A DNA stretch of 64,000 nucleotides, taken from positions 9,726-73,725 of the forward strand of contig JAYZFQ010000084.1 of NCBI GenBank assembly GCA_036336695.1, read 5' to 3'. This document shows positions 1,151 to 44,176 of this stretch, piece by piece. This stretch comes from Myxococcota bacterium. GTDB taxonomy: Bacteria > Myxococcota_A > UBA9160 > SMWR01. Under the pieces are notes generated by a model. It saw only the letters and a list, made by a program, of their open reading frames with translations, made no database searches and was not told the DNA's origin. The first letter of the stretch is position 1. Each line of letters begins with the position of its first letter. Made by a program: the position numbers and the translations under genes.

Positions 1151-1434
1151 GACTACGATCCCCCCTCCAGCAGGTGCCGAGGCCCGATCGGCGGCGCCAC
1201 GGGCGCCCCCGGAGCCTTCATTGGGATGGGTGAGAGGCTTCTCCCTTGCCCATTTGAGCGATGAGGTTCTCGGCGGCCCGGCCCAGTCTGCGCCCCCATG
1301 TGCGAGTTGCTTCCCCGAGTGGAGTTGCCGCTGGCTTGCCGGTGGCAAGCCATTGCGTTCTGGCACCAACCCTCCAGTGACACGCGCCCCCGGGCCGCGT
1401 TAGCGGGTTGCCGCGTGCGGTTTCGTGACACCGC

Positions 1435-1461
1435 GCACTTCGACCGAGAAGCGGGCTCGAA
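1435..1461 (+). promoter_or_regulatory. Putative ECF (sigmaE-like) promoter of the GH16 gene
   Basis: GCACTT-N16-TCGAA, about 80 nt upstream of ATG 1542; a similar element lies at 32885-32912. Confidence 0.35.
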
Positions 1462-1541
1462 ATACTTCCGGGAGGGGATGGTCGAACGGCTGGGCGTTCG
1501 GGGCGTCGTTTTCAAGTCAACGACAGCGGGAGGATCTGCAG

Positions 1542-4500
1542 ATGGGGAGCGCCGGAATCGATTGTCTGAGCCAGGTCCCGACTTCCGAACCGCAGGCGCG
1601 TGCGCCCCGGAGTGCCGGCGCCCTGGTGGCGGGACTGTTGCTCGTGGTCTTGCTCCAGGTGGGTTGTAGTGACATTCCCGGCTTGTGCGCCCAGACCGGC
1701 GGGTGTGTCGTTTTGCCGCTTCCGGCGCGCTTCGAGCGCGACGTTCCGGTTCCGGGTGGGACGGTGCGGGTCGGGCTGGTGGAGGTCGAGGGCGGCATTG
1801 CGCGGTTTTTCGTCGTGGGAGCGCCATGGGCGGACCTGGAGGTGGAGAGCGACACGATTTCACGCCTCACCCGCATGCTCCACGCGGGTGGCCACAACGA
1901 ATACCCGGTCCACGGCTTGACACCCGGCGATGCGATCGATTTCCGCTTTCGCGTCGGGACCGGAATCTCTCCCGGGCAGGTCTGGAGTGACTGGTTCCAG
2001 CATGTCTACGTCGGTCGCAACGCCGAGCCCGCCACCGGATCCACACCGCGCGTTCGCCCCCTGGCCGGCGGGCGGTTGTCGTTCGAAGTCGACGACGTTC
2101 CCTGGGCGGAGCTGCACCGCGAAGAGGCGGGTGTCGTTCGCGGGCGGCGCCTCGGCGTTGACGGGAACCGTCACGCGCTGACCCTGGACGGTCTCGTGAA
2201 CGGGGAACTCGTCGTCTACCGCTGGGTGATTGGCATCGACCAGGTCCCGGGTCAGTACGACACCGACTGGACCACTCTCGTCTACGAGGATCCCTCCGTG
2301 GCAACCGCGCCGGCTCCCGCCGCCGGCAGCGAACCGCCGCAGCCCGCGGAAGCGGACGAATGGATTCTGGTGTGGGGGGATGAATTCGATTCCCCCGCTG
2401 GTGAGTCGCCGGATGCATCGCGCTGGGTGTTCGACCTCGGCGGGTCGGGCTGGGGCAACGCGGAGCGCCAGTACTACACCGACCGACCGGAAAACGCGTC
2501 GATGGACGGAGAGGGACACCTCGTCATCGCGGCCCGAGAGGAATCGCTGCCTGGAACGTCGTGCTGGTACGGAACGTGCCGCTACAGCTCCGCCCGCTTG
2601 AAGACCCAGGGGCGCTTCGAACAGCAGTACGGGCGAATCGAGATGCGGGCCCAGCTTCCGTTCGGCCCAGGACTCTGGCCGGCGTTCTGGATGCTCGGTG
2701 CGGAACTCGGCTCGGTGGGCTGGCCCGCCGCCGGGGAGATCGACGTCATGGAGAACATCGGTCGCGAGCCGTCCGAGGTCCACGGGACGGTGCACGGGCC
2801 GGGCTATTCCGGGGCAGGGGGAATCGGTTCCGGGTTTCGCCTTCCCGAAGGAGAACGGTTTGCCGATGCCTTCCATACGTTTGCGATCGAATGGGCTCCC
2901 GAATCGGTCCGGTGGTTCGTCGATGGCCACCTCTACCAGACCCTGACGCCCGCGAACCTCCCCCCCGACGCGCCGTGGGTCTTCGACCAGCCCTTCTTCC
3001 TGCTTCTCAACGTCGCCGTGGGTGGTTATTGGCCGGGTGATCCCGACGCGACCACGGCGTTTCCCCAGCATCTGCGGGTCGATTACGTGCGGGTCTTCGA
3101 GCGGCAAGAGTCTCCCTCCGGCACCACCCGGGAGGGATCCCGGCGCATCGAAGCCGAGGATTTCGACGCCCAGTGGGGTGTGCTCACCGAACGCGTCTCG
3201 AGTGCGAGCGGGGGAGCGAACATCGGCTGGGTCGCCCGGGGAGACTGGAGCGTCTACCGAGACGTCGACTTCGGGAACCGGGAGGTCGAATCGGCCGCCC
3301 TGCGGGTGGCCTCGGGGGCAGGCGTTTCCGGGGAAGTCGCGGTTCGGCTCGATTCCGTGTCGGGCCCGCGGCTCGCGGTCTTTCCCCTCGAGGATACGGG
3401 GGGCTGGGAGGACTGGGTCCGCCTGGAGCGCCCGTTGGAGACGCTTCCTGACGGCCGGCGCGATGTCTATCTCGTGTTCGACAGTGCGGCAGGCCGTCGA
3501 GAACTCGGGAACGTCGATTGGCTCGAGTTTGGCCTGGCCCCGATCGCCGAACCCGTGTCTCCGGAAGGGGTTGTGCCGCCCGCCGCCCCGGCGGCCATAC
3601 CCGAGACCGGCTCGGAAGCTCCCTCGGACCCGTCCGGTGCGAGCGAGCAGCCCGTGGCCTCTCCGCCCGCGACCCAGGCCCCCGGGCCCGTAGCCTCCGC
3701 GAAGCTGGAGGAGACCCAGCGCAGTCTCTACCTCCTCTCGGGCGCTAGTTCCGCGGGGGTCGGCGTGCTTTCGCCGGCCCCGGGTTCGGCGGGTTCGTTC
3801 GACCGGATTCCCGGGGACGGGTCCCCGATTGCCTGGGAGGCCCGGGACCTGGTTGCGCCCTACGTCCCCAGGCTTGGGGGTACCCGCCTCGAACTGTGGT
3901 TGGACGGTGTCCAGACGCCCGGCATCTATGCCCAGGCGCGGGTGCTCTACGACTTCGAAGGCGACGGCACGCCCGATCGGGTCGAGACCTTCGTCGCGGC
4001 TCCCGCGCACGACCACGTCGGTCTCGACCTCTACGACTCGGAAGCGTTTCCGCTGGTCGCGGAGCAAGGTGTCTTCGCAGACCTGGACGGGGGGACGGTG
4101 CGGCTGGAGTTGCGCGACCCGCATTTCCTCGACGGCCCGGAGGTGCGCGTCGGCGCCTCGCTTCGCGAGCACCAGGTGTCCAAGGTGGATGTCCCCTTCG
4201 AGCTGAACGTCGCGGAATTCACGGCCGTCTCCGTGACGCCGGAAGCCAACGCGTTCCACCCCGCGATCGTCTGCGCCGGTCCGGCAGTCGACCCGCGCTG
4301 TGGGCCGGCGTTCGATCCGGGCCGGGCCCTGACCGAACGCGAACTCGAGGCGGCGCTCGAAAATGGCCTGGAAGCCTTCCGCCTCGCCGGCGCACACGGA
4401 GCCTGCGCCGCGTGCCACAGCCCGGATGCTTTCGACCTCGCTGTGATCGGCTACAGCGACGCGGACATCCGGCGGCGGGCGTTGGAACACGTTTCCCAAA

Positions 4501-5921
4501 CCCGCGCAGAGGAGATCGTGCAGCTGGTCCATGCCCAGCGGCAGCAGCACGACCTTCGCGAAGTTCTTCACCCCGCGGAATTCCGACCGCTCCAGCCCGG
4601 GTTCGTACCGCTTCCGGGTTTGCGGCCCGCGGACCGGGACCTGGCGTTTCTTCAGCACCTGCGCGACGAGGTCGGTCTGTTGCTCGTGACGGATGTCATC
4701 GACTCGCGCGAGAAGGCCGAAGCTGCGGAAGAACAACTTCGGGGCATCGATCTCGGCGAACTCCGCATCGGGGTCCGGCTCGACCGTTGGTCCGAAGACG
4801 CATTCCACGGACCGAGTCACACGGGACAGGACCTGACGGATCCCAGCGGGACCCGCGGACACGCGGCCAGCGTGGCCGAGTGGCTGCCGAACCTGGGTGT
4901 CGCGCCCCAGTCGGAGCACGCAGACGCGTACTACGCGCTCTTCGATGCCTACGCGGCGGACCCTTCGGACCTCAACTTCTGGCGCTTCTACGCTGCGATC
5001 CGGGAGCTCACCGAGAGCGAAGAGCGGCTGGACGGGGAGGCGGAAAGGCGCGCCTACGAGTGGATGCTCACCAAGTACGAGTCGGTTCAGATCATGTCGC
5101 ACATGCTCCGGAAGCGTACGCGCGATTACCCGGACCGGGTCGTGGACCGGTTCGGTCATGACGAGATCGCCGACGTGGAGATTGCGATCCGCCGGAACCC
5201 CTTCTGGCGGGTGGGCGACCTGATCCGCCAGCGCCCGCTCCACTGCAATCACCCCGATGGTTGCACCGTGTTCCCGGATTTCGTGCCGGTGGAAGCCGAT
5301 CTCTGGAAGCAGGAGGTGCAGTCGCGGGTTCTCCAGCGCGCCTGGTTCTGGGCGGGGTGGGTCACCGACCCGGCGCTCCTCACGTCGGACGACTCCTTCC
5401 CGACGATTTCGGGCGACTACTTCTACCCGCTTCACCACGGGCCCTTCCCGGGGCACTACGCGTTCATCCTGGCGAAGCTGTCCACGGAAAAGGCGAACGC
5501 GACCGGCTGGGAGGTCTCCGGCGGTGCCGGAACGGCGGGACACGGAAAATGGGCGAGCATTCGGCCCTTCCTTGTCTACAAGCACAGCGAGTTCCAGAGG
5601 CCGCAGCTTTCCGAGGCCGACCCGCGGCACGCGCTCTACTACCGCTTGATGGCCAACGTCGCGCGCATGTGGATCTACCTGGTGGATGCCGACCTGGAGG
5701 CGACGGGAGAGGCCTTCGATCGTGCCGGCACGGCCAAGGCGGTGAACTTCGCCCGCTTGAACTGGCTCGACAGTGTCGAGCCCGGCGGCCCGAGAGCCGA
5801 GATCTACGGCGTGTTCGACGCCATCGTCGAGAAGCTGAGAACGGCGAAAGAACTCCGCCAGCAGCACCACACGTACGACCTCTACGATTATCTTCCCGTG
5901 GCCGACGTCGATGTGGACTAG
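1542..5921 (+). CDS. Multidomain lipoprotein: 2x CBM56-like, GH16 beta-1,3-glucanase, CBM6, accessory module, C-terminal CxxCH heme-c domain
   Basis: GGGAGG RBS before ATG 1542; lipobox-like LLQVGC; GH16 motifs WGDEFD, WGNAERQYY, WPAFWMLG, catalytic GEIDVME (2736-2753); CBM6 RIEAEDFD...NIGW...VDFG; CAACH at 4404-4418. Confidence 0.85.
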   Translation: MGSAGIDCLSQVPTSEPQARAPRSAGALVAGLLLVVLLQVGCSDIPGLCAQTGGCVVLPLPARFERDVPVPGGTVRVGLVEVEGGIARFFVVGAPWADLEVESDTISRLTRMLHAGGHNEYPVHGLTPGDAIDFRFRVGTGISPGQVWSDWFQHVYVGRNAEPATGSTPRVRPLAGGRLSFEVDDVPWAELHREEAGVVRGRRLGVDGNRHALTLDGLVNGELVVYRWVIGIDQVPGQYDTDWTTLVYEDPSVATAPAPAAGSEPPQPAEADEWILVWGDEFDSPAGESPDASRWVFDLGGSGWGNAERQYYTDRPENASMDGEGHLVIAAREESLPGTSCWYGTCRYSSARLKTQGRFEQQYGRIEMRAQLPFGPGLWPAFWMLGAELGSVGWPAAGEIDVMENIGREPSEVHGTVHGPGYSGAGGIGSGFRLPEGERFADAFHTFAIEWAPESVRWFVDGHLYQTLTPANLPPDAPWVFDQPFFLLLNVAVGGYWPGDPDATTAFPQHLRVDYVRVFERQESPSGTTREGSRRIEAEDFDAQWGVLTERVSSASGGANIGWVARGDWSVYRDVDFGNREVESAALRVASGAGVSGEVAVRLDSVSGPRLAVFPLEDTGGWEDWVRLERPLETLPDGRRDVYLVFDSAAGRRELGNVDWLEFGLAPIAEPVSPEGVVPPAAPAAIPETGSEAPSDPSGASEQPVASPPATQAPGPVASAKLEETQRSLYLLSGASSAGVGVLSPAPGSAGSFDRIPGDGSPIAWEARDLVAPYVPRLGGTRLELWLDGVQTPGIYAQARVLYDFEGDGTPDRVETFVAAPAHDHVGLDLYDSEAFPLVAEQGVFADLDGGTVRLELRDPHFLDGPEVRVGASLREHQVSKVDVPFELNVAEFTAVSVTPEANAFHPAIVCAGPAVDPRCGPAFDPGRALTERELEAALENGLEAFRLAGAHGACAACHSPDAFDLAVIGYSDADIRRRALEHVSQTRAEEIVQLVHAQRQQHDLREVLHPAEFRPLQPGFVPLPGLRPADRDLAFLQHLRDEVGLLLVTDVIDSREKAEAAEEQLRGIDLGELRIGVRLDRWSEDAFHGPSHTGQDLTDPSGTRGHAASVAEWLPNLGVAPQSEHADAYYALFDAYAADPSDLNFWRFYAAIRELTESEERLDGEAERRAYEWMLTKYESVQIMSHMLRKRTRDYPDRVVDRFGHDEIADVEIAIRRNPFWRVGDLIRQRPLHCNHPDGCTVFPDFVPVEADLWKQEVQSRVLQRAWFWAGWVTDPALLTSDDSFPTISGDYFYPLHHGPFPGHYAFILAKLSTEKANATGWEVSGGAGTAGHGKWASIRPFLVYKHSEFQRPQLSEADPRHALYYRLMANVARMWIYLVDADLEATGEAFDRAGTAKAVNFARLNWLDSVEPGGPRAEIYGVFDAIVEKLRTAKELRQQHHTYDLYDYLPVADVDVD

Positions 5922-25599: not shown

Positions 25600-26568
25600 C
25601 TAGCGCTGGATCGTCAGGGCCTCGGCGGCGACGACCCCCCAGGACCCGTCCGGGTCGAACGCCTGGATCTTGTCGGCCAGTTGCGCGGTGTCGGGGCCGA
25701 GGTTCTTCTCGTAGACGATGCCCGTCTGGTTCACCAGGAACGTCATGACACCGGAAGCTCCGTACTGAGCCGGGCGGGCGATCAAGGCGAATCCGTTCGT
25801 CATGGCGCCGTCGACGACGTAGTCCATGGATCCGCCGTAAGCCTCGGGTCCTTGGGCGAGCAGGATGCGGTAGACGTAGCCGTGGTAGGGCGTGTCGGGT
25901 CCCTGGCTCCCGGAGTAGCCCTCGGCGCGCGCGGCTGCGTAGAGTTCCCCCAGCGGGCTGGGAAGTTCGCCAGGGCCGACCTTCCAGAAAAGCCCGTCCT
26001 TTTTTCCAGGGGTACTGGTGAGGGTTCGCGCGTACTGGGGCGTTCCTCCCATCGGGTTTCGGGCGAAGTACTCGCGCTCGGCATCCACGAAGGCAAGGCT
26101 CGCCTGGATGGCACTGAATTCGTTGCGGCCGATCCGGCGGTTCAGCATCTCTTCGCGCCCGCTGGCGGTGTCGAAGCGCCAACCGTCGTTGCCCGGAACC
26201 AGCGGGATGGGAAAGGCCCAATTGCTCGCTCCGGCTTCGAGGATCTTGCTCCCCTCGTTTCCGGCCACCCACTGGTGCTTCTTTTCGTAGGCCGAGACGA
26301 ACACCTTGCGCAGGTACGCGTCCGAGGTCGGATCGCCCGAGGACACGAGGGCGGCGGCATCGGTCCCGAAGATGGCGAGGAGCCGTTCCGTGTCGTTCGT
26401 TCGGGCCGCCTCGACGAGCGCTGCCCCTGCGCCCGCCGGCGATGCGAAGAGTTCGGGGCCGTGCGCGTCCGCGTGGGAAGCCACCGGTGCGAGCAAGACT
26501 GCAGTGGTCGCCAGGAATCGGGCGAGACTCGATCGCGCCTGGATCCGCGTCATCGGGGTTCCCTTCAT
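25600..26568 (-). CDS. DUF2950 family protein
   Basis: WAFPIPLV, WRFDT..GREEMLNRRIGRNE, KKDGLFW, PYHGYVYRIL, YGASGVMTFLVN; ATGA overlap with DUF3300. Confidence 0.93.
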   Translation of the reverse strand: MKGTPMTRIQARSSLARFLATTAVLLAPVASHADAHGPELFASPAGAGAALVEAARTNDTERLLAIFGTDAAALVSSGDPTSDAYLRKVFVSAYEKKHQWVAGNEGSKILEAGASNWAFPIPLVPGNDGWRFDTASGREEMLNRRIGRNEFSAIQASLAFVDAEREYFARNPMGGTPQYARTLTSTPGKKDGLFWKVGPGELPSPLGELYAAARAEGYSGSQGPDTPYHGYVYRILLAQGPEAYGGSMDYVVDGAMTNGFALIARPAQYGASGVMTFLVNQTGIVYEKNLGPDTAQLADKIQAFDPDGSWGVVAAEALTIQR

Positions 26569-27794
26569 CGCCGTCGTCCTCCGCCAAAGTGCCGTCCGCC
26601 GCCTCGTCCTCCGCCCCAACCGCCGCCGCCGCCGCCGAAGCTGTCCCGGCTGGCGCGGCCGCGATTGGAATTGCGGCGCGCTTCAACGCCGTTGCCGGCG
26701 CCGCCGAACGCGCCGTCACCCCAGCGGGATTGCCCCTGCTGGCGCGCGCCCGCGCGGTTTTGCTCGAAGCCCCCTTGCCGGGTGTTGGCGCCTTCGCGCT
26801 TTCCCCCGAAACTTCCGCCGCCGGAACCCGCGCCCTTGAAGCGGTCGGCGTTGCCCTGGGCGATCTGCTGCCGCCCCTTCTCCGCGTGTCCGCGGAAGGA
26901 GTCTCGGGCCTTCTGTCTCTGGGCCGAATTGTCGCCGTATCTGTTCTGGAGGTTCCGGTCGCCGTACCCGACGCCCCTGCGGTGGGTGTTGTCGTGTTTC
27001 CAGGTGTTGTTGGTGATGTTGGTTCTGTTGAAATTGTTGTAACGGTTGACGTTGATGTTGACTTCGGACCGGCCCCAGTTGCAGTTGCCCCAGAGCGCAG
27101 CGCCGACGGCCATGCCCATGCCGAACGAGATTGCTGAAGACGCATACCGGTAGCCGGGGGGGTACCAGTAGAAGGGCGCGTAGGCGGGGTAGGGCCACAC
27201 GCCGTACACGACCGTCGGGTTGTAGGTGGGGACGTAGACGACTTCCGGGTTTGCGGGCTGGATGATGATGGTCTGCGACTGGTTGCCTGTGGGTTTGTCC
27301 TCGACTGTCACGGTCTGCTGATCATTGCTCTTGAGGTTCCCGGCGTCCTCGGCGCGCTTTCGCAGCCCTTGGATTGCACTCATGACGTCCGATTGCTGTG
27401 CGAGGAACGCGTTGCCCAGTTGGGTGGTCCAGTCGAGCTTGTCGTTCATCATTTCCAGCGTCTGCGGAAACGCGGTGAGCGACTTCACGCTCGCGTCCCA
27501 GCTTTCTTTCTGGAGCGCGGCCTCGAGTTGCTTGCCTTCCAGCTTTGGGTTGGCCTTTACCCAGCGCGCGGCCTCGACGATTTCCAGGGGGTAGGTGGAG
27601 GCCATCAGCACCTGGGCGATCAGGGAATCCGGGTACAGGGCGATGGGAGCCACGAGTTGATCGAGCTGCTCCGTGGAGAGGGTCTTCGTGTCGCTCTTGG
27701 CCCCCTGCGCAGCCGGGATCCAGGCAAGCAGAGCCAGGAGAACCACGAGCGTGGGTTCTCCGAGAGAACGCATCGGGCTTCGGGTGCGGGTCAC
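26565..27794 (-). CDS. DUF3300 domain protein with Gly/Arg-rich tail
   Basis: QLDQLVAPIALYPDSLIAQVLMASTYP, WDASVKSL, PEVVYVPTYNP. Confidence 0.93.
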   Translation of the reverse strand: MTRTRSPMRSLGEPTLVVLLALLAWIPAAQGAKSDTKTLSTEQLDQLVAPIALYPDSLIAQVLMASTYPLEIVEAARWVKANPKLEGKQLEAALQKESWDASVKSLTAFPQTLEMMNDKLDWTTQLGNAFLAQQSDVMSAIQGLRKRAEDAGNLKSNDQQTVTVEDKPTGNQSQTIIIQPANPEVVYVPTYNPTVVYGVWPYPAYAPFYWYPPGYRYASSAISFGMGMAVGAALWGNCNWGRSEVNINVNRYNNFNRTNITNNTWKHDNTHRRGVGYGDRNLQNRYGDNSAQRQKARDSFRGHAEKGRQQIAQGNADRFKGAGSGGGSFGGKREGANTRQGGFEQNRAGARQQGQSRWGDGAFGGAGNGVEARRNSNRGRASRDSFGGGGGGWGGGRGGGRHFGGGRRR

Positions 27795-32993: not shown

Positions 32994-35921
32994 ATGAAGA
33001 GTTCGGACTCGAGACGGCGCCCTTTCGCATACCGTGCGGGGGGCTTCGCGATTCTTGCGATCGGATTGCTCTCGACGCTTGCGGCGGCGCCGCCGGCCGG
33101 TGCGCACGGTTCCCTGGAGCAGCCGCCATCGCGTACGACCGCCTGTCGCTTCCATGACCTCGACAACCCCATGTGTGCCCAGGCCTGGGCGGCCGAGCCC
33201 CAGGCCTTGTACGACTGGATGGAGGTCAACATCGGGGACGCCGCAGGGCGCCATCGCGAACTGATTCCCGATGGTCGGTTGTGTGGCGCGGCGCGGGAGA
33301 AGTACGCGGCGTTCGACCAACCGGGGGATTGGCCGGCCCGGGCGATGGTTCCCGACGCCGACGGGCTCCACACCGTTGAATTCTTTGCCACCGCGCCCCA
33401 TGCCGCGGAGTACTTCCGTTTCTACCTGACCCGCGAGGGTTTCGATCCCCTGGTGGATTCGCCGACCTGGGACGATCTCGAACTGGTGCACGATTCCGGC
33501 CCGGTTCCCTACGTCGATCTCGCGGCGTCGCCTCATTACCCGTTCCGTTTCGCGCTGCCCGGACGGGAAGGCCGGTACGTTCTCTATTTCGTCTGGCAGA
33601 GGAGCGACAGCCCCGAGGCGTTCTACGGCTGCAGCGATGTGCTGCTTGGCGCGTCGGACGGCGCCCCTGTCGACGAAGCTCCCGTTTCCGCGCCGGAGCC
33701 GTCTCCTGAGGCGTCGGAAGGACCCGTTGCTCCTGCGCCGGGGCTGACGGGGGTCGATGTTTCGGTCGGCTTGACGGACGACTGGGGCGGCGGTGCGTGT
33801 GGCGAGGGCGTCGTGACGAACCACGGGACCAACGCCGTCGTCTGGGAAGCGCACGTGGAACTCGGGGGCATGGTCACGACCTACTGGGACTCGGAGATCA
33901 GCCTCTCGACCCATCCGCATGGAGAACACAGCGCGATCGCGCAGAACTGGCGCGTGGTCGGCGCCCCGTGGAACGCGACGCTCCCGGCCGGGGGCGCCAC
34001 GTCCTTCGGGTTCTGCATCGATCGGACGGCCGCTGCGCCGGTTACCGAGCCTTCACCCGATCCGGTGTCGCCCGCCGAGCCCGCCGAGCCCGCCGAGCCC
34101 GCCGACGAGGCGCCGGCTTCGAACGAGGAACCGGCGGTGCCAGCCGTGCCGGAAGACGGGGACGCGGAACCTGCAACCCCGCCGGCAAGTCCCGCAAGCC
34201 CGAGCGAGGCGATCCTCGCCGGTTATTTCCCCGAGTGGGGAATCTACGCGCGGAACTACCGCATCGCCGATGTGCCTGCCGCGGAGTTGACGCACCTGAT
34301 CTATGCCTTCGCGGACCTGGATCCGAACGGGAACGTGACGCTCTTCGATGCGTTCGCCGCGGTCGAGAAACGCTTCCAGGCCGGCGAGTCGGTTGCGGGC
34401 GTGGCCGATGCCACCGATCCCGATGCCGGGATTGCGGGAAACTTCGGGCAGATCGCACTCCTGAAGGCGCGTCATCCGCACCTCCGCGTGAGCATTGCGA
34501 TCGGGGGCTGGACGCTGTCCCGGAACTTCAGTGCCGTTCTTGCGACACCATCGGGCCGAGACCAGGCCAGCGACTCGGTGGTCCAGTTCGTCGAGCGGTA
34601 CGAGATGTTCGACGGCGTCGACTTCGACTGGGAATACCCGGGCGGCGGGGGACTGGCGGAAAACGGCACGAGTGCCGATGACGGTCGGAACTACGCGCTC
34701 TTCCTCGGGCTGGTCCGCGAGAAATTGGACGCCCTGGGCAGCGCGACGGGCCGCCGTTACGAAATTTCGGTCGCCTCTCCGGCGGGGTACGACAAGATCG
34801 CGAACTTCAATCTTGCGGGTCTCGTGGACGTCGTCGATTTCTTCAACGTCATGACGTACGACTTTCACGGCACCTGGGAGAGCGTCACGGGGCACCTGGC
34901 TGCCTTCGAAGCCGACCCGGGCGGCTACGACATTTCGACGACGACCCGCCTGTACCTGGAGGCCGGCGTGCCTCCGGAAAAGATCGTGCTCGGCTCGCCG
35001 CTCTACACCCGAGCCTGGTCCGGCGTGGCCGCCGGAAACGACAGGGGGTATGCAGCGGCCGCTGCAGGGCCGGCCCCCGGGAGTTTCTGGGATCAGCCCG
35101 GCATGTACGACTACAAGGATCTGCTCGGGCGCTTGCGCGCTGCGGACAGCAGCTGGGAACTCTACTGGGACGACGCTTCCCAGGCGGCGTATCTCTACGA
35201 TGCGAGCCAGGGCATCTTCAGTTCCTTCGAGACGCCGACCACGGTGGCCTTGAAGTCGGAGTGGGCCCGTCGTTCCGGCTTTGGCGGGATGATGTTCTGG
35301 GACCTCTCCAGCGATGCCACGGGAGACGCCGAGAGTCTCGTGTCTGCTGCGTACGACTTCTGGAGCGGTGGACGCTCGTTCGAGGCAGTTGCCGCCGGCT
35401 CGCAGCTTGCCTTCGATCACGTGCTGGGCGGCAACGGTCTCGTCGACCCCTTCGGAGATGGGGCAGCCCCTTCGGATCCGCCTGCAGTGGAAGAGCCCGC
35501 AACCGAGGAGACCCCGCCGGAAGCGCCCGCGTCCGCTGAAGCGGAGGTGCCGGAAGCGCCCGAAGACGACCCCGGTGTCCTCGAACGGCTTTCGATCACC
35601 GTCGGAGGCTCCCTGTGGTGGCAGGGCCTGACCGCGCAACTCGCGGTGCGCAACGAGACGGCGGAACCCATCGACGGGTGGAGCTTCGCCTTCCGCAGCT
35701 CGCACCGGGTTTCGGGAGCGCCCTGGGGCGCGGAGATCGTGTCGGTCGACCTCGGCAACGGGTTCTATGAGTACCGGGTCACCGGTACCGGCTGGGCGTC
35801 CGTCATTCCGGCGGGTGGCTCTGTCGAGGTGGGCTTCAACGCGAGCCAGGGGACGCTCATTGGAAACGCGGGCGTGCTGACGGCAGCGCAGCTGTTCGAC
35901 GGGGGGCTGGTCGCCGAATGA
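32994..35921 (+). CDS. Secreted AA10 LPMO - CBM2 - GH18 chitinase - CBM2 fusion
   Basis: Signal AGA|HG places His at the mature N-terminus (33105); PPSR, LCGA, TAPH, WQRSDSPEAFYGCSDV (AA10); GAPWNATLPAGG..SFGF (CBM2); YFPEWGIY, IGGWTLS, FDGVDFDWEYPG, MTYDFHG, GGMMFWD (GH18). Confidence 0.93.
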   Translation: MKSSDSRRRPFAYRAGGFAILAIGLLSTLAAAPPAGAHGSLEQPPSRTTACRFHDLDNPMCAQAWAAEPQALYDWMEVNIGDAAGRHRELIPDGRLCGAAREKYAAFDQPGDWPARAMVPDADGLHTVEFFATAPHAAEYFRFYLTREGFDPLVDSPTWDDLELVHDSGPVPYVDLAASPHYPFRFALPGREGRYVLYFVWQRSDSPEAFYGCSDVLLGASDGAPVDEAPVSAPEPSPEASEGPVAPAPGLTGVDVSVGLTDDWGGGACGEGVVTNHGTNAVVWEAHVELGGMVTTYWDSEISLSTHPHGEHSAIAQNWRVVGAPWNATLPAGGATSFGFCIDRTAAAPVTEPSPDPVSPAEPAEPAEPADEAPASNEEPAVPAVPEDGDAEPATPPASPASPSEAILAGYFPEWGIYARNYRIADVPAAELTHLIYAFADLDPNGNVTLFDAFAAVEKRFQAGESVAGVADATDPDAGIAGNFGQIALLKARHPHLRVSIAIGGWTLSRNFSAVLATPSGRDQASDSVVQFVERYEMFDGVDFDWEYPGGGGLAENGTSADDGRNYALFLGLVREKLDALGSATGRRYEISVASPAGYDKIANFNLAGLVDVVDFFNVMTYDFHGTWESVTGHLAAFEADPGGYDISTTTRLYLEAGVPPEKIVLGSPLYTRAWSGVAAGNDRGYAAAAAGPAPGSFWDQPGMYDYKDLLGRLRAADSSWELYWDDASQAAYLYDASQGIFSSFETPTTVALKSEWARRSGFGGMMFWDLSSDATGDAESLVSAAYDFWSGGRSFEAVAAGSQLAFDHVLGGNGLVDPFGDGAAPSDPPAVEEPATEETPPEAPASAEAEVPEAPEDDPGVLERLSITVGGSLWWQGLTAQLAVRNETAEPIDGWSFAFRSSHRVSGAPWGAEIVSVDLGNGFYEYRVTGTGWASVIPAGGSVEVGFNASQGTLIGNAGVLTAAQLFDGGLVAE
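34071..34106 (+). repeat. 9-bp tandem repeat encoding the PAE-PAE-PAE-PAD linker
   Basis: CCCGCCGAG x3 followed by CCCGCCGAC. Confidence 0.85.
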
Positions 35922-41701: not shown

Positions 41702-44065
41702 TCATGCATCCCCCGCTTGGCCGGCGGCGCGCAGCGCTTCCACGGTGGCGCCCAGGGTCAGGAGTTCGGGCAGGAGTTGAGGTGGCTTGGTGGGGTCCGC
41801 GGGGTAGACGAGGTACATCGGCACGCCTGCGCGGCCCCATTGGGCAAGCGCCTGGGTAATCCCGTCGTCGCGCAGCGTCCAGTCGGCCTTGAAGGTCGCG
41901 AACTCCCAGCGCGCGAGTTCTTCCTGGACCGCTGCGTTGGAAAGCACCACGGCTTCGTTGACCTTGCACGTGATGCACCAGTCGGCGGTGAAGTCGACGA
42001 AGACCGGTCGCCCCGCGGCACGCTCGCGATCGATCGCCAACGGGTCGAAGGCGAGCCAGTTGATTCCGCCTGGAGAGGATGCGGCGTCGTCAGACCGTTC
42101 ACGCGGCGCCGGTGCGAGGGGTAATGCGGTGAGCGACCCGACCGCGAGCGCCACGATGACTGCGGCGATGGCGCGTGCCGCCATGGGGCGCGCGGTGGCC
42201 TGGACGGCGCCGAAGACCCAGAGGAGGAATGCGATGGCGATGAGATGCGCGAGCAATAACGCCTGGGCGTCCACACCGATGGCGCGTCCTGCTACCCAGG
42301 CCAGCCACACCACCGTGGCCAGCAGCGAGAACCCCAGCACCTGGCGGACGCGCAGCATCCAGGCGCCGGGGCGCGGAACCAGGCGCGCCCAGCCAGGCAC
42401 GAGCGTCACGAGCACGTAGGGCGCGGCCAGTCCAACGCCAATCGCGGTGAACACGGCGAAGATCACCGTCCCCGAGCTCGCGAAGGCGAAGCCGACGGCT
42501 GTGCCGAGGAAGGGCGCGGTGCAGGGCGTTGCGAGGGCGACCGCGAGGCTCCCTTCGAAGAAGCTGCGTGCGGGGGAGGTGGGGCCGGTGTTGGGGCCGA
42601 GGTTGGGGCCGGAAGGTTGCAGCGTGATCTCGAAGGCACCGAAGAGGTTCATCGCGAAGACGACGAGGAGCGTGCAGATCACCGCGAGGAACCCTGGGTC
42701 CTGAAGCTGAAAGCCCCAGCCCACCGCGGTGCCGGCTGCGCGGAGGGCGACCACGACCGAGGCGAGCGCGGCCATCGATGCCAGCACGCCTGCCAGGTAG
42801 GCCACGCCGTGTTGCACGACGTGGCTGCGGTCGGCGCGAGCCAGGTCGGCAATTCCAAAAACCTTGATGGCGAGCACGGGCAGCACGCACGGCATCAGGT
42901 TGAGGATCAGGCCGCCGATCAGTCCAAGCACGAGCGCCCAAGCGAGCGAAGGCGGGCCGAGGCCGCCGGGCGTCTCGGCGCCGATGCTGTGCTCGGCGCC
43001 CGCGGGCTGCGAGGGCAGGGCGACCACCACTTCGAACGCAGCGGGGTCGGCGGTCTCCGCATGGGTGATCGGAACGTCTACGGCGAGGTGGGTGTTGCCG
43101 CTGGGTCCGGAAATCGGCACGACACCGCGCAGGCGTTGGCGGTCCACGTGGGGTTCATTCTCGAAGGCGTGCGCGTTGAGGGCGAGGGAAAAGCCGCGCG
43201 TATTCTCGGCCTGTGCGGCGGGTGGGCGCGCGAGGCCGAGTGCCGAGAAGCCCAGGTTTGCTTCTTCCAGGGGGAAGAACGCCCCTTCGGCGTTGCTGGC
43301 ATCGAGGGTCCACGGACGGCACTCGGCGCCGGAATCGGCCGCGGAATCGACGCACGACAGGACCTCGAGGACGAGTGGGACGTCGTCTCCCATATCCGCC
43401 GCCGCCCGTGAGGCCCGTGCGTTGACGGCGACGCCGAGCGATTCGGGTGTCCGTGGCAGGCGCGACGCGGCTCGTTCGAAGCGGGCACGGATCTCGGGGG
43501 GCGGCGGTGTCGTCCGAACGCTGAGCGGCACCTCTTTCGCGAGTTGGATTTTCCCAGGAACGCATTCGACCCGGCACGCAACGAAGCCCGTGTCCACTTC
43601 GAGGCGCCACGTTCCCTGTGTGTCTTGGGATACGAGGGCGTCGCTTGCGAGCAAGACGTCGTTCTCGTAGCCGAAAGTCGTCAGCAGGCCGTCTGCCTCC
43701 TGAAAGACCCTGGGTGCCGGCCACTGGGTCGGTTCGATGGCCGCGTCTGTAGCGCGCCAGACGAACTTGGGGGGGGAGCCTGCATCGCCTGGGTTGCGCC
43801 AATAGAGATGCCAGCCCGGGTCGAGGTCGAAGAGCACACCGACCCGCACGCGATCGCCGGGCGCGACGGAAGCCGCATCAACGAGGAGTTCGGCCGCGAC
43901 CCGGGCGTCGCCCGAGCCGAGGGCGGCCTCTCCGCGGGGGCCGGGGTCGGCGGCCGAGGCACTCGCAGCGAGCCAGGGCAGGAGCGCGACGCCGATCAGC
44001 GCCAACTGCGCGAGGCTGCCGCGAATCGCCGGTTTCGCCGACCGTTTGAGCGCTCGATCGTTCAT
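41702..44065 (-). CDS. dsbD: DsbD-like thiol:disulfide interchange protein (N-terminal, TM and thioredoxin domains)
   Basis: GWHLYWRNPGDAG, ACRVECVP, LNLMPCVLPVL, ATPCTAPFLG, VDFTADWCITCKVNE, GRAGVPMY. Confidence 0.9.
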   Translation of the reverse strand: MNDRALKRSAKPAIRGSLAQLALIGVALLPWLAASASAADPGPRGEAALGSGDARVAAELLVDAASVAPGDRVRVGVLFDLDPGWHLYWRNPGDAGSPPKFVWRATDAAIEPTQWPAPRVFQEADGLLTTFGYENDVLLASDALVSQDTQGTWRLEVDTGFVACRVECVPGKIQLAKEVPLSVRTTPPPPEIRARFERAASRLPRTPESLGVAVNARASRAAADMGDDVPLVLEVLSCVDSAADSGAECRPWTLDASNAEGAFFPLEEANLGFSALGLARPPAAQAENTRGFSLALNAHAFENEPHVDRQRLRGVVPISGPSGNTHLAVDVPITHAETADPAAFEVVVALPSQPAGAEHSIGAETPGGLGPPSLAWALVLGLIGGLILNLMPCVLPVLAIKVFGIADLARADRSHVVQHGVAYLAGVLASMAALASVVVALRAAGTAVGWGFQLQDPGFLAVICTLLVVFAMNLFGAFEITLQPSGPNLGPNTGPTSPARSFFEGSLAVALATPCTAPFLGTAVGFAFASSGTVIFAVFTAIGVGLAAPYVLVTLVPGWARLVPRPGAWMLRVRQVLGFSLLATVVWLAWVAGRAIGVDAQALLLAHLIAIAFLLWVFGAVQATARPMAARAIAAVIVALAVGSLTALPLAPAPRERSDDAASSPGGINWLAFDPLAIDRERAAGRPVFVDFTADWCITCKVNEAVVLSNAAVQEELARWEFATFKADWTLRDDGITQALAQWGRAGVPMYLVYPADPTKPPQLLPELLTLGATVEALRAAGQAGDA

Positions 44066-44120
44066 GGCCCGAGACCTCTCGTGACTCGCGCGGGAAACCG
44101 GCCCTGCATCCGCGGGAGCC

Positions 44121-44176
44121 TTGACATTACCGACTGAGAGTGGAACTCTCAAGATTGATTGAGAGTACTGCTCTCA
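44121..44176. promoter_or_regulatory. TTGACA -35 box plus two TGAGAG-N5-CTCTCA palindromic operators
   Basis: TTGACA 44121-44126; palindromes at 44135-44151 and 44160-44176, between divergent dsbD and tetR. Confidence 0.75.

Follow-up and report, generated by a model that had tools for sequence, protein, structure and literature searches.

A recurrent laminarinase fusion to a domain from a large, unannotated and putatively heme-c-binding family in a marine Myxococcota genome

A gene in a Myxococcota genome raises the question of what a large C-terminal domain with a heme-c attachment motif is doing on an endo-beta-1,3-glucanase. The gene lies at nucleotides (nt) 1542-5921 (+) of a stretch of 64,000 nt (contig JAYZFQ010000084.1 of assembly GCA_036336695.1, positions 9,726 to 73,725 of the forward strand; hereafter the window), and is one gene with a product of 1459 amino acids (aa). 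An initial annotation, made from the letters of the sequence, had described this product as a glycoside hydrolase family 16 (GH16) enzyme with carbohydrate-binding modules (CBMs), fused to an uncharacterised CxxCH domain. Sequence comparison indicates that this joining of laminarinase and C-terminal domain is genuine, recurs elsewhere and has so far gone undescribed; the domain comes from a large family of putative heme-c domains without annotation, and its function can be inferred.

The C-terminal CxxCH domain and the module before it

The last 560 aa of the protein (nt 4239-5918, +) make up a mainly alpha-helical domain, according to a predicted model, and belong to a family without a name. 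The domain gave no match in Pfam or NCBIfam and, searched as a single sequence, no sequence match in the PDB. A CxxCH motif had been reported at nt 4404-4418 within a C-terminal region of about 550 aa, and it is present there (+) as CAACH (C955, C958, and H959; aa 955-959), embedded in the longer pattern CxxCHxPDxxDLA, as a putative covalent heme-c site. It is the sole CxxCH of the 1459-aa product, with 0.003 such motifs expected by chance from its Cys and His content. Its conservation among homologues, which the initial annotation had named as a check, was complete, the motif being kept in 34/34 homologues covering this region and in 185/185 members of a larger set. An interpretation as a CxxC thiol-redox motif rather than a heme site was dropped because the His is invariant.

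Besides the CxxCH, about 15 polar or aromatic residues of the domain are nearly invariant across phyla. These comprise (in the numbering of the full protein) R978 (183/186), R979 (181/186), Q1018 (185/186), P1019 (186/186), D1086 (183/187), Y1137 (188/188), K1178 (174/187), H1187 (176/187), W1268 (184/187), H1305 (167/177), and N1372 (165/167), with R1000, R1015, D1033, and R1190 as further near-invariant positions. H983 was kept in 159/186 sequences, and no conserved Met was found in the heme-domain family (best column 124/167).

Searched against the PDB, the family profile matched the heme-site helix of cytochrome c4 (6q2u, E-value 0.0068 over 58 positions) and, weakly, a di-haem cytochrome c peroxidase (CCP) family protein (6v59, E-value 0.29 over 34 residues). 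In hhalign comparisons of the family with 61 class-I cytochrome c domains, only 15 columns aligned, all of them around the CxxCH. The strict conservation of the motif agrees with the earlier label of a heme-c domain. To call it just a cytochrome domain would nevertheless fall short, its likeness to class-I cytochromes being limited to these roughly 15 residues. The PSD/DUF1592 planctomycete-type cytochrome family was considered as well and rejected, as a DUF1587-DUF1592 protein aligned with the family profile at an hhalign probability of 1.6%. The model of the heme domain (protein alone, no cofactor) reached a predicted local distance difference test (pLDDT) score of 87.7; no convincing fold match for it was obtained in the PDB, where the match lists were filled by parts other than the CxxCH sub-domain, and look-ups in the ESM Atlas (scores of 0.83 and 0.77 only) were uninformative.

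The genome encodes CcmE and has three Cytochrom_C_asm matches of the CcmF/CcmC type (contigs C109 and C11), while ResB was not found in it; with the CcmE and CcmF/CcmC-type genes present, covalent attachment of heme is feasible. Based on motif and conservation, the domain most likely carries one covalent heme c on C955, C958, and H959. A DsbD-type thiol:disulfide interchange protein is encoded at nt 41702-44152 (-) of the window.

Directly upstream of the heme domain lies a beta-rich module of 180 aa with the signature YDFEGDGxxDRVE (nt 3699-4238, +), which had already been picked out in the initial annotation by this signature and is here called the mid module, as it is conserved together with the heme domain. 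It occupies the same place in 13 proteins or loci and is doubled in three Verrucomicrobiota loci. Its model had a pLDDT below 50, a fold search returned weak jelly-roll matches at most, and PDB sequence searches with the module yielded nothing meaningful.

A laminarinase half in the same reading frame

The open frame of the gene spans nt 1425-5921 (+), and its guanine and cytosine (GC) content by codon position is uniform (0.72/0.50/0.81). The ATG at nt 1542, with GGGAGGA just 5' of it, is the likely start. An extra G follows nt 1499 in contigs from three of four other metagenome runs (X2, X3, and X9), which argues against a GTG start at nt 1425, because the 1-nt insertion would break the frame beginning there and leaves nt 1542-5921 unaffected. 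This extra G may be population variation or an error of the window in the 5' leader, and bears on the choice of start codon only.

As the source genome is fragmented (155 contigs, 86% complete), the long frame could in principle be an artefact in which two genes were fused by misassembly or by a sequencing frameshift. Independent contigs from metagenome runs of other studies (Logan contigs) contradict this, as they extend across the CBM6, the linker, and the mid module to the heme domain and show no indels on the way: a single gap-free contig of run X3 covers nt 3087-5362 and so reaches from the CBM6 to the heme domain in one piece, and three contigs of run X2 tile nt 1300-5619. The region at nt 3300-4700 was near-identical in the 12 runs that contain at least half of its words, which are labelled marine or seawater metagenome, and the 20 runs among the matches listed for it come from 11 studies. 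The codon-position GC, uniform along the frame, and the recurrence of the architecture at 64-71% identity in at least six other proteins or loci (see below) speak against the artefact as well, and we regard it as extremely improbable; an assembly chimera was rejected as contradicted by the bridging contigs from other metagenomes. That there is one gene rather than two, a point the initial annotation had singled out, is borne out on both counts, as contigs bridge the junctions and relatives carry the fusion in one frame. The genes flanking it are unrelated and lie on the opposite strand.

The N-terminus (nt 1542-1667, +) comprises the start codon, a long n-region, a hydrophobic core, and a lipobox-like LLQVGC ending in Cys42 (codon at nt 1665-1667). 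A lipobox follows the signal peptide and has the pattern [LVI][ASTVI][GAS]C. The lipobox that had been assigned here has in its favour the hydrophobic stretch, LLQVGC, and the canonical lipoboxes of relatives at the matching place (LTLSGC, LSVTAC, and LLGLGC), but its Q at position -3 is atypical. Judging from these features, the product is exported and probably lipid-anchored.

Two repeated modules follow, as the initial annotation had it: repeat 1 (nt 1716-2030, +) and repeat 2 (nt 2031-2300, +) align with each other at 32% identity over 75 aa (E-value 5e-11). Repeat 1 is CBM56-like by a weak Pfam match (18.6 bits in one search and 21.7 bits, E-value 2.4e-4, in another, both below the CBM_56 cut-off of 27 bits), and repeat 2 had no Pfam CBM_56 match. 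With repeats in L001-L004 and P0034, repeat 1 shares 39-49% identity, and those in L002 and L003 (41-49% identical to repeat 1) exceed the CBM56 cut-off with 32.1 and 32.8 bits; between repeat 2 and the corresponding second repeat in relatives, identity is 45-56%.

The GH16 endo-beta-1,3-glucanase catalytic domain (nt 2379-3116, +) matched Pfam PF00722 at aa 318-515 with an E-value of 6.9e-26 and 91.2 bits (cut-off 22), and contains the catalytic motif EIDVME (ExDxxE) at aa 399-404 (nt 2736-2753). Against solved beta-1,3-glucanases, the best E-values were 2.7e-85 (3atg) and 3e-85 (2hyk), with GEIDVMEN aligned to GEIDIMEN of 3atg, and all top eight PDB matches (E-values 2.7e-85 to 2.5e-71) are named glucanase, beta-1,3-glucanase, hydrolase, GH16, or laminarinase. 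Behind it, the CBM6 (nt 3150-3530, +; aa 537-663) matched Pfam PF03422 with an E-value of 4.2e-26 and 92.1 bits (cut-off 28.9); its closest solved relatives are 1w9s, from the BH0236 protein (E-value 2.2e-20), a module that binds beta-1,3-glucan, and 2v4v (E-value 5.6e-19). A Pro/Ala/Ser/Glu-rich linker of 54 residues (nt 3537-3698, +; P 14, A 12, S 7, and E 5) then leads to the mid module. The catalytic motif, the CBM6, the linker, and the general picture of a bona fide GH16 beta-1,3-glucanase with CBM6 and CBM56-like modules had all been read from the letters and were reproduced here. On this evidence, the N-terminal half appears to be an ordinary endo-beta-1,3-glucanase with binding modules of the beta-glucan type. 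Compared with solved or described GH16 laminarinases with CBM6 or CBM56 (3atg, 2hyk, and 3azx), it is a standard member; unlike the window protein, none of these has a heme domain.

The combination of GH16 and heme domain in one frame was found in at least six other proteins or loci, so that the architecture, for which a search of other genomes had been proposed, recurs in independent genomes. L001 (record of the metagenome-assembled genome (MAG) TMED88) and L002 (a Myxococcota MAG) encode CBM2, CBM56, GH16, mid module, and heme domain in one frame. P0186 (1525 aa) joins CBM56, GH16, and CBM6/35 to a heme domain 71% identical to that of the window; P0188 and the fragment P0004 also have GH16 with the heme domain; and in the genomes G109 and G134, GH16 and heme-domain matches share frames of 1416 aa and 1504 aa. 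With the CxxCH strictly conserved, the gene intact, and the architecture recurrent, the sequence-based objections listed in the initial annotation do not apply. In L001, the gene two places upstream of the GH16-heme gene (L001:3025-4611 (-)) encodes a molybdopterin oxidoreductase of the sulfite-oxidase type that ends in a cytochrome c domain; this was observed at that one locus only. P0192 (1239 aa, a Candidatus Binatia MAG record) carries a mid and heme unit 65% identical to that of the window together with a CBM6/35 and a calcineurin-like metallophosphoesterase (PF00149), and has no GH16.

Family spread and partner domains

A word-indexed search returned 36 homologues of the heme domain, mostly stand-alone proteins of 575-700 aa; only a few have a name, which is either "mono/diheme cytochrome c family protein" or "cytochrome c". 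Searching 1.84 billion representatives with a profile yielded 626 clusters (defined at 50% identity) at an E-value of 1e-3 or below, and 323 at 1e-30 or below. By record title, MAGs of marine Myxococcota, "Deltaproteobacteria", and Binatia hold members at 64-65% identity, Verrucomicrobiota at 41-45%, and Armatimonadota, Acidobacteriota, Rhodothermales, Balneolaceae, and Flavobacteriaceae at 26-35%. The search for homologues of 802-2554 aa used the full window protein as query, and a profile search of longer proteins (1713-4890 aa) found no homologue.

At least two CxxCH motifs occur in 59/189 members. An added cytochrome c domain (PF13442) was present at the N- or C-terminus in 13 of the 37 long members scanned and, where scanned, the extra CxxCH domain is a small class-I cytochrome c. 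Other partners in long members are CBM56, CBM2, Golvesin_C, PA14 with a tail for the type IX secretion system (T9SS), Big_7/PKD, and Lipoprotein_15. In a maximum-likelihood tree of 25 heme domains, the CBM-bearing marine forms make up a 13-row clade (100/99), nested in a clade of 17 rows (99/97) to which CBM56 forms belong as well; of the three subclades of this larger clade, two include GH16-bearing proteins. In the window protein's clade and its sister clade, both of them within the 17-row clade, the heme unit is combined with CBM56, CBM2, CBM6/35, GH16, or the metallophosphoesterase.

These data also allow a non-redox role to be weighed, in which the C-terminal unit would serve binding, anchoring, or sensing, a heme or a CxxCH-bound metal would be structural or regulatory, and the protein would be a laminarinase with an appendage. 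Such a role is quite unlikely: the full CxxCH including its His, kept in 185/185 sequences, is the signature of covalent heme c; the frequent fusions with class-I cytochrome c imply electron transfer; and many invariant charged and aromatic residues lie far from the motif.

Some loci of family members have further features. In one Myxococcota MAG, two members are encoded in tandem (L019:7197-9338 and L019:9366-11558), the first with an extra N-terminal CxxCH. In Aquimarina and Flavobacteriaceae (L025, L027, and L029), stand-alone members have T9SS-secreted proteins for neighbours, in which lectin, CBM96, malectin, or GH39-like domains occur, and this hints at a glycan context in Bacteroidota too. 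The window also holds a DUF2950 and DUF3300 gene pair (nt 25600-27794 (-)), and a DUF3300 protein likewise neighbours the family gene in L009.

Proposed redox roles of the heme domain

The reading towards which we lean, tentatively and stopping just short of calling it probable, is that of a heme-c oxidoreductase domain, tethered through CBMs to insoluble glycans in the marine clade and placed here beside a laminarinase. From the domain anatomy, the conservation, the recurrence of the fusion, and the heme-attachment machinery, which are observed, we infer heme binding, catalysis, and any substrate. The GH16 half, flanked by the two CBM56-like repeats and the CBM6, would hydrolyse beta-1,3-glucan, and the flexible Pro/Ala linker would connect this hydrolase to a two-part unit of the small beta module and the 560-aa helical heme domain. 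The latter would be a catalytic heme oxidoreductase of the peroxidase or oxygenase type rather than a plain electron shuttle, as suggested by its large size, the Arg, Asp, Tyr, His, Lys, and Trp residues invariant across phyla, the missing His/Met signature of a carrier, and the frequent fusion to small cytochromes. A fused PF13442 cytochrome c gives the layout usually seen where a catalytic heme is served by a domain for electron transfer. In other phyla, the domain stands alone or is fused to the small class-I cytochrome c, through which electrons would be fed in or drained; in one marine clade, CBM2, CBM56, or CBM6 would tether it to insoluble polysaccharide, and the window protein joins it to GH16 as well. 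Hydrolysis and heme redox chemistry would then share one target, a particle or cell wall rich in glucan or chitin.

Several points weigh against an oxidoreductase. The heme pocket is placed by its motif, because only the 15 residues around the CxxCH align with class-I cytochrome c, and so large a conserved domain could also serve as a scaffold for docking or binding, built around a heme that transfers electrons. The extra cytochrome c domain of other members is missing from the window protein, which leaves the electron source at the cell surface unexplained. Lastly, no conserved gene neighbourhood was found that would hint at a substrate, the largest shared neighbour family (5/32 loci) being ABC-type ATPases.

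Among described systems, Cbp2D of Cellvibrio japonicus and TERTU_2913 and TERTU_3803 of Teredinibacter turnerae are secreted multimodular proteins in which flexible linkers join CBMs to the CxxCH domains X183 and X132 (PMC8981238; PMC10916295; PMC12542752). X183 is there a small cytochrome c with a solved structure, and X132 a C-terminal domain with a single CxxCH, termed a "novel sequence" without characterised homologue, which has DUF1587 at its start (PMC8981238; PMC10916295; PMC12542752). The window protein resembles these proteins in outline, with CBMs and a C-terminal single-CxxCH domain in one secreted chain; the Cbp2D-type and T. turnerae proteins are without a glycoside hydrolase, unlike the window protein. 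The parallel with Cbp2D drawn in the initial annotation is one of analogy only, and neither sequence nor Pfam searches connected the domain with X183 or with the DUF1587 preceding X132: DUF1587 (PF07626) had no match in the window protein (E-value up to 1) nor in 35 + 37 family members, and no X183 chain was among the PDB sequence matches at E-values up to 10, with single sequence or profile as query. X132 was compared by its description and by the DUF1587 marker only. In the literature searched, which excludes the supplementary X132/X183 list of PMC8981238, no GH16-cytochrome fusion was found.

Cbp2D is also the precedent for another role, in which the heme domain would be a polysaccharide-tethered electron donor to the organism's lytic polysaccharide monooxygenase (LPMO) of family AA10, a functional analogue of Cbp2D in a use specific to the clade, with both proteins on the same insoluble substrate. 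In vitro, AA10s accept electrons from the X183 cytochrome domain of Cbp2D (PMC8981238). The genome's sole LPMO_10 match lies in the same window about 27 kb from the fusion gene (nt 32994-35921, +), in a protein of 975 aa which by domain matches combines the AA10 LPMO (aa 38-216) with a GH18 chitinase (aa 408-774) and a CBM2, a module that sister proteins of the window protein also bear. Across 151 genomes of the class, AA10 was present in 5/5 genomes with the heme domain vs 3/146 without. Within genus g1, G000 has heme domain and AA10 and G072 neither; within g19, G109 and G134 have both and the other two genomes neither. This association is tighter than that with GH16 (19/151 genomes, including four of the five) or GH18 (14/151, including four of the five). 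The co-occurring genomes are, however, kin (three genera), and the pattern may stem from a shared chitin/glucan-degrading lifestyle or a joint gain or loss of genes. The heme-domain and AA10 genes are not adjacent here and lie on separate contigs in G021, G102, G109, and G134, and AA10 was found in only one of ten genomes of other phyla holding family members, from which it follows that the core function of the family is independent of LPMOs. A domain of 560 aa with many invariant polar residues, moreover, far exceeds what an electron-transfer cytochrome needs, and no resemblance in sequence to X183, or to the DUF1587 next to X132, was found for it. Taken by analogy with Cbp2D, an LPMO donor is therefore possible but unlikely.

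The AA10-GH18 fusion also occurs in G021, G059, G070, and G085. G072, from the window genome's genus (94% complete), is without heme domain, AA10, and GH18 and has a stand-alone GH16 in a 310-aa frame; within the genus, the glucan/chitin toolkit seems to have been gained or lost as a set.

For a catalytic heme of the kind we tentatively favour, di-heme CCP and MauG offer a comparison: these exported or periplasmic heme-c enzymes pair a catalytic heme with a further heme domain that handles its electron transfer, a logic shared by the PF13442-fused family members. They differ in that the family core has one CxxCH, another predicted fold, about twice the domain size, and no match to PF03150, which was missing from the window protein and from the scanned family members. 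In fungi, cellobiose dehydrogenase and the AA8-AA12-CBM1 pyranose dehydrogenase use a CBM-tethered cytochrome as a redox partner in oxidative polysaccharide degradation; these AA8 systems have a b-type heme in a beta-sandwich fold and a flavin or pyrroloquinoline quinone dehydrogenase, whereas the window protein has a predicted c-type heme, a helical domain, and no dehydrogenase domain. A bolder version would make the family a new class of heme-c-dependent, polysaccharide-active oxidative enzymes, with LPMO-independent, iron-based oxidation or cleavage of beta-1,3-glucan or chitin coupled here to GH16 and electron supply by the fused class-I cytochromes elsewhere; this we consider very unlikely.

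How redox equivalents are supplied and used outside the cell in bacterial polysaccharide breakdown is unresolved, and the sole candidates so far are Cbp2D/Cbp2E and the shipworm-symbiont proteins, whose function is unclear (PMC8981238, PMC10916295, PMC12542752). The locus described here adds a family of putative heme-c domains that is large, unannotated, and widely spread across phyla, and for which a confident model has no match among solved folds. It also adds the repeated recruitment of this domain to modules for binding beta-1,3-glucan and chitin or cellulose, in marine bacteria that are abundant and uncultured. Because the domain is covalently fused to a glycoside hydrolase, there is a clear hypothesis on the substrate context, hinting at redox chemistry directly on polysaccharide surfaces. 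Laminarin and chitin are major marine carbon pools. If the domain is a plain electron-transfer or scaffold module, it would still be a useful new domain family of modest importance; an oxidative accessory activity on laminarin or chitin, if true, would bear on carbon cycling and on the search for new enzymes.

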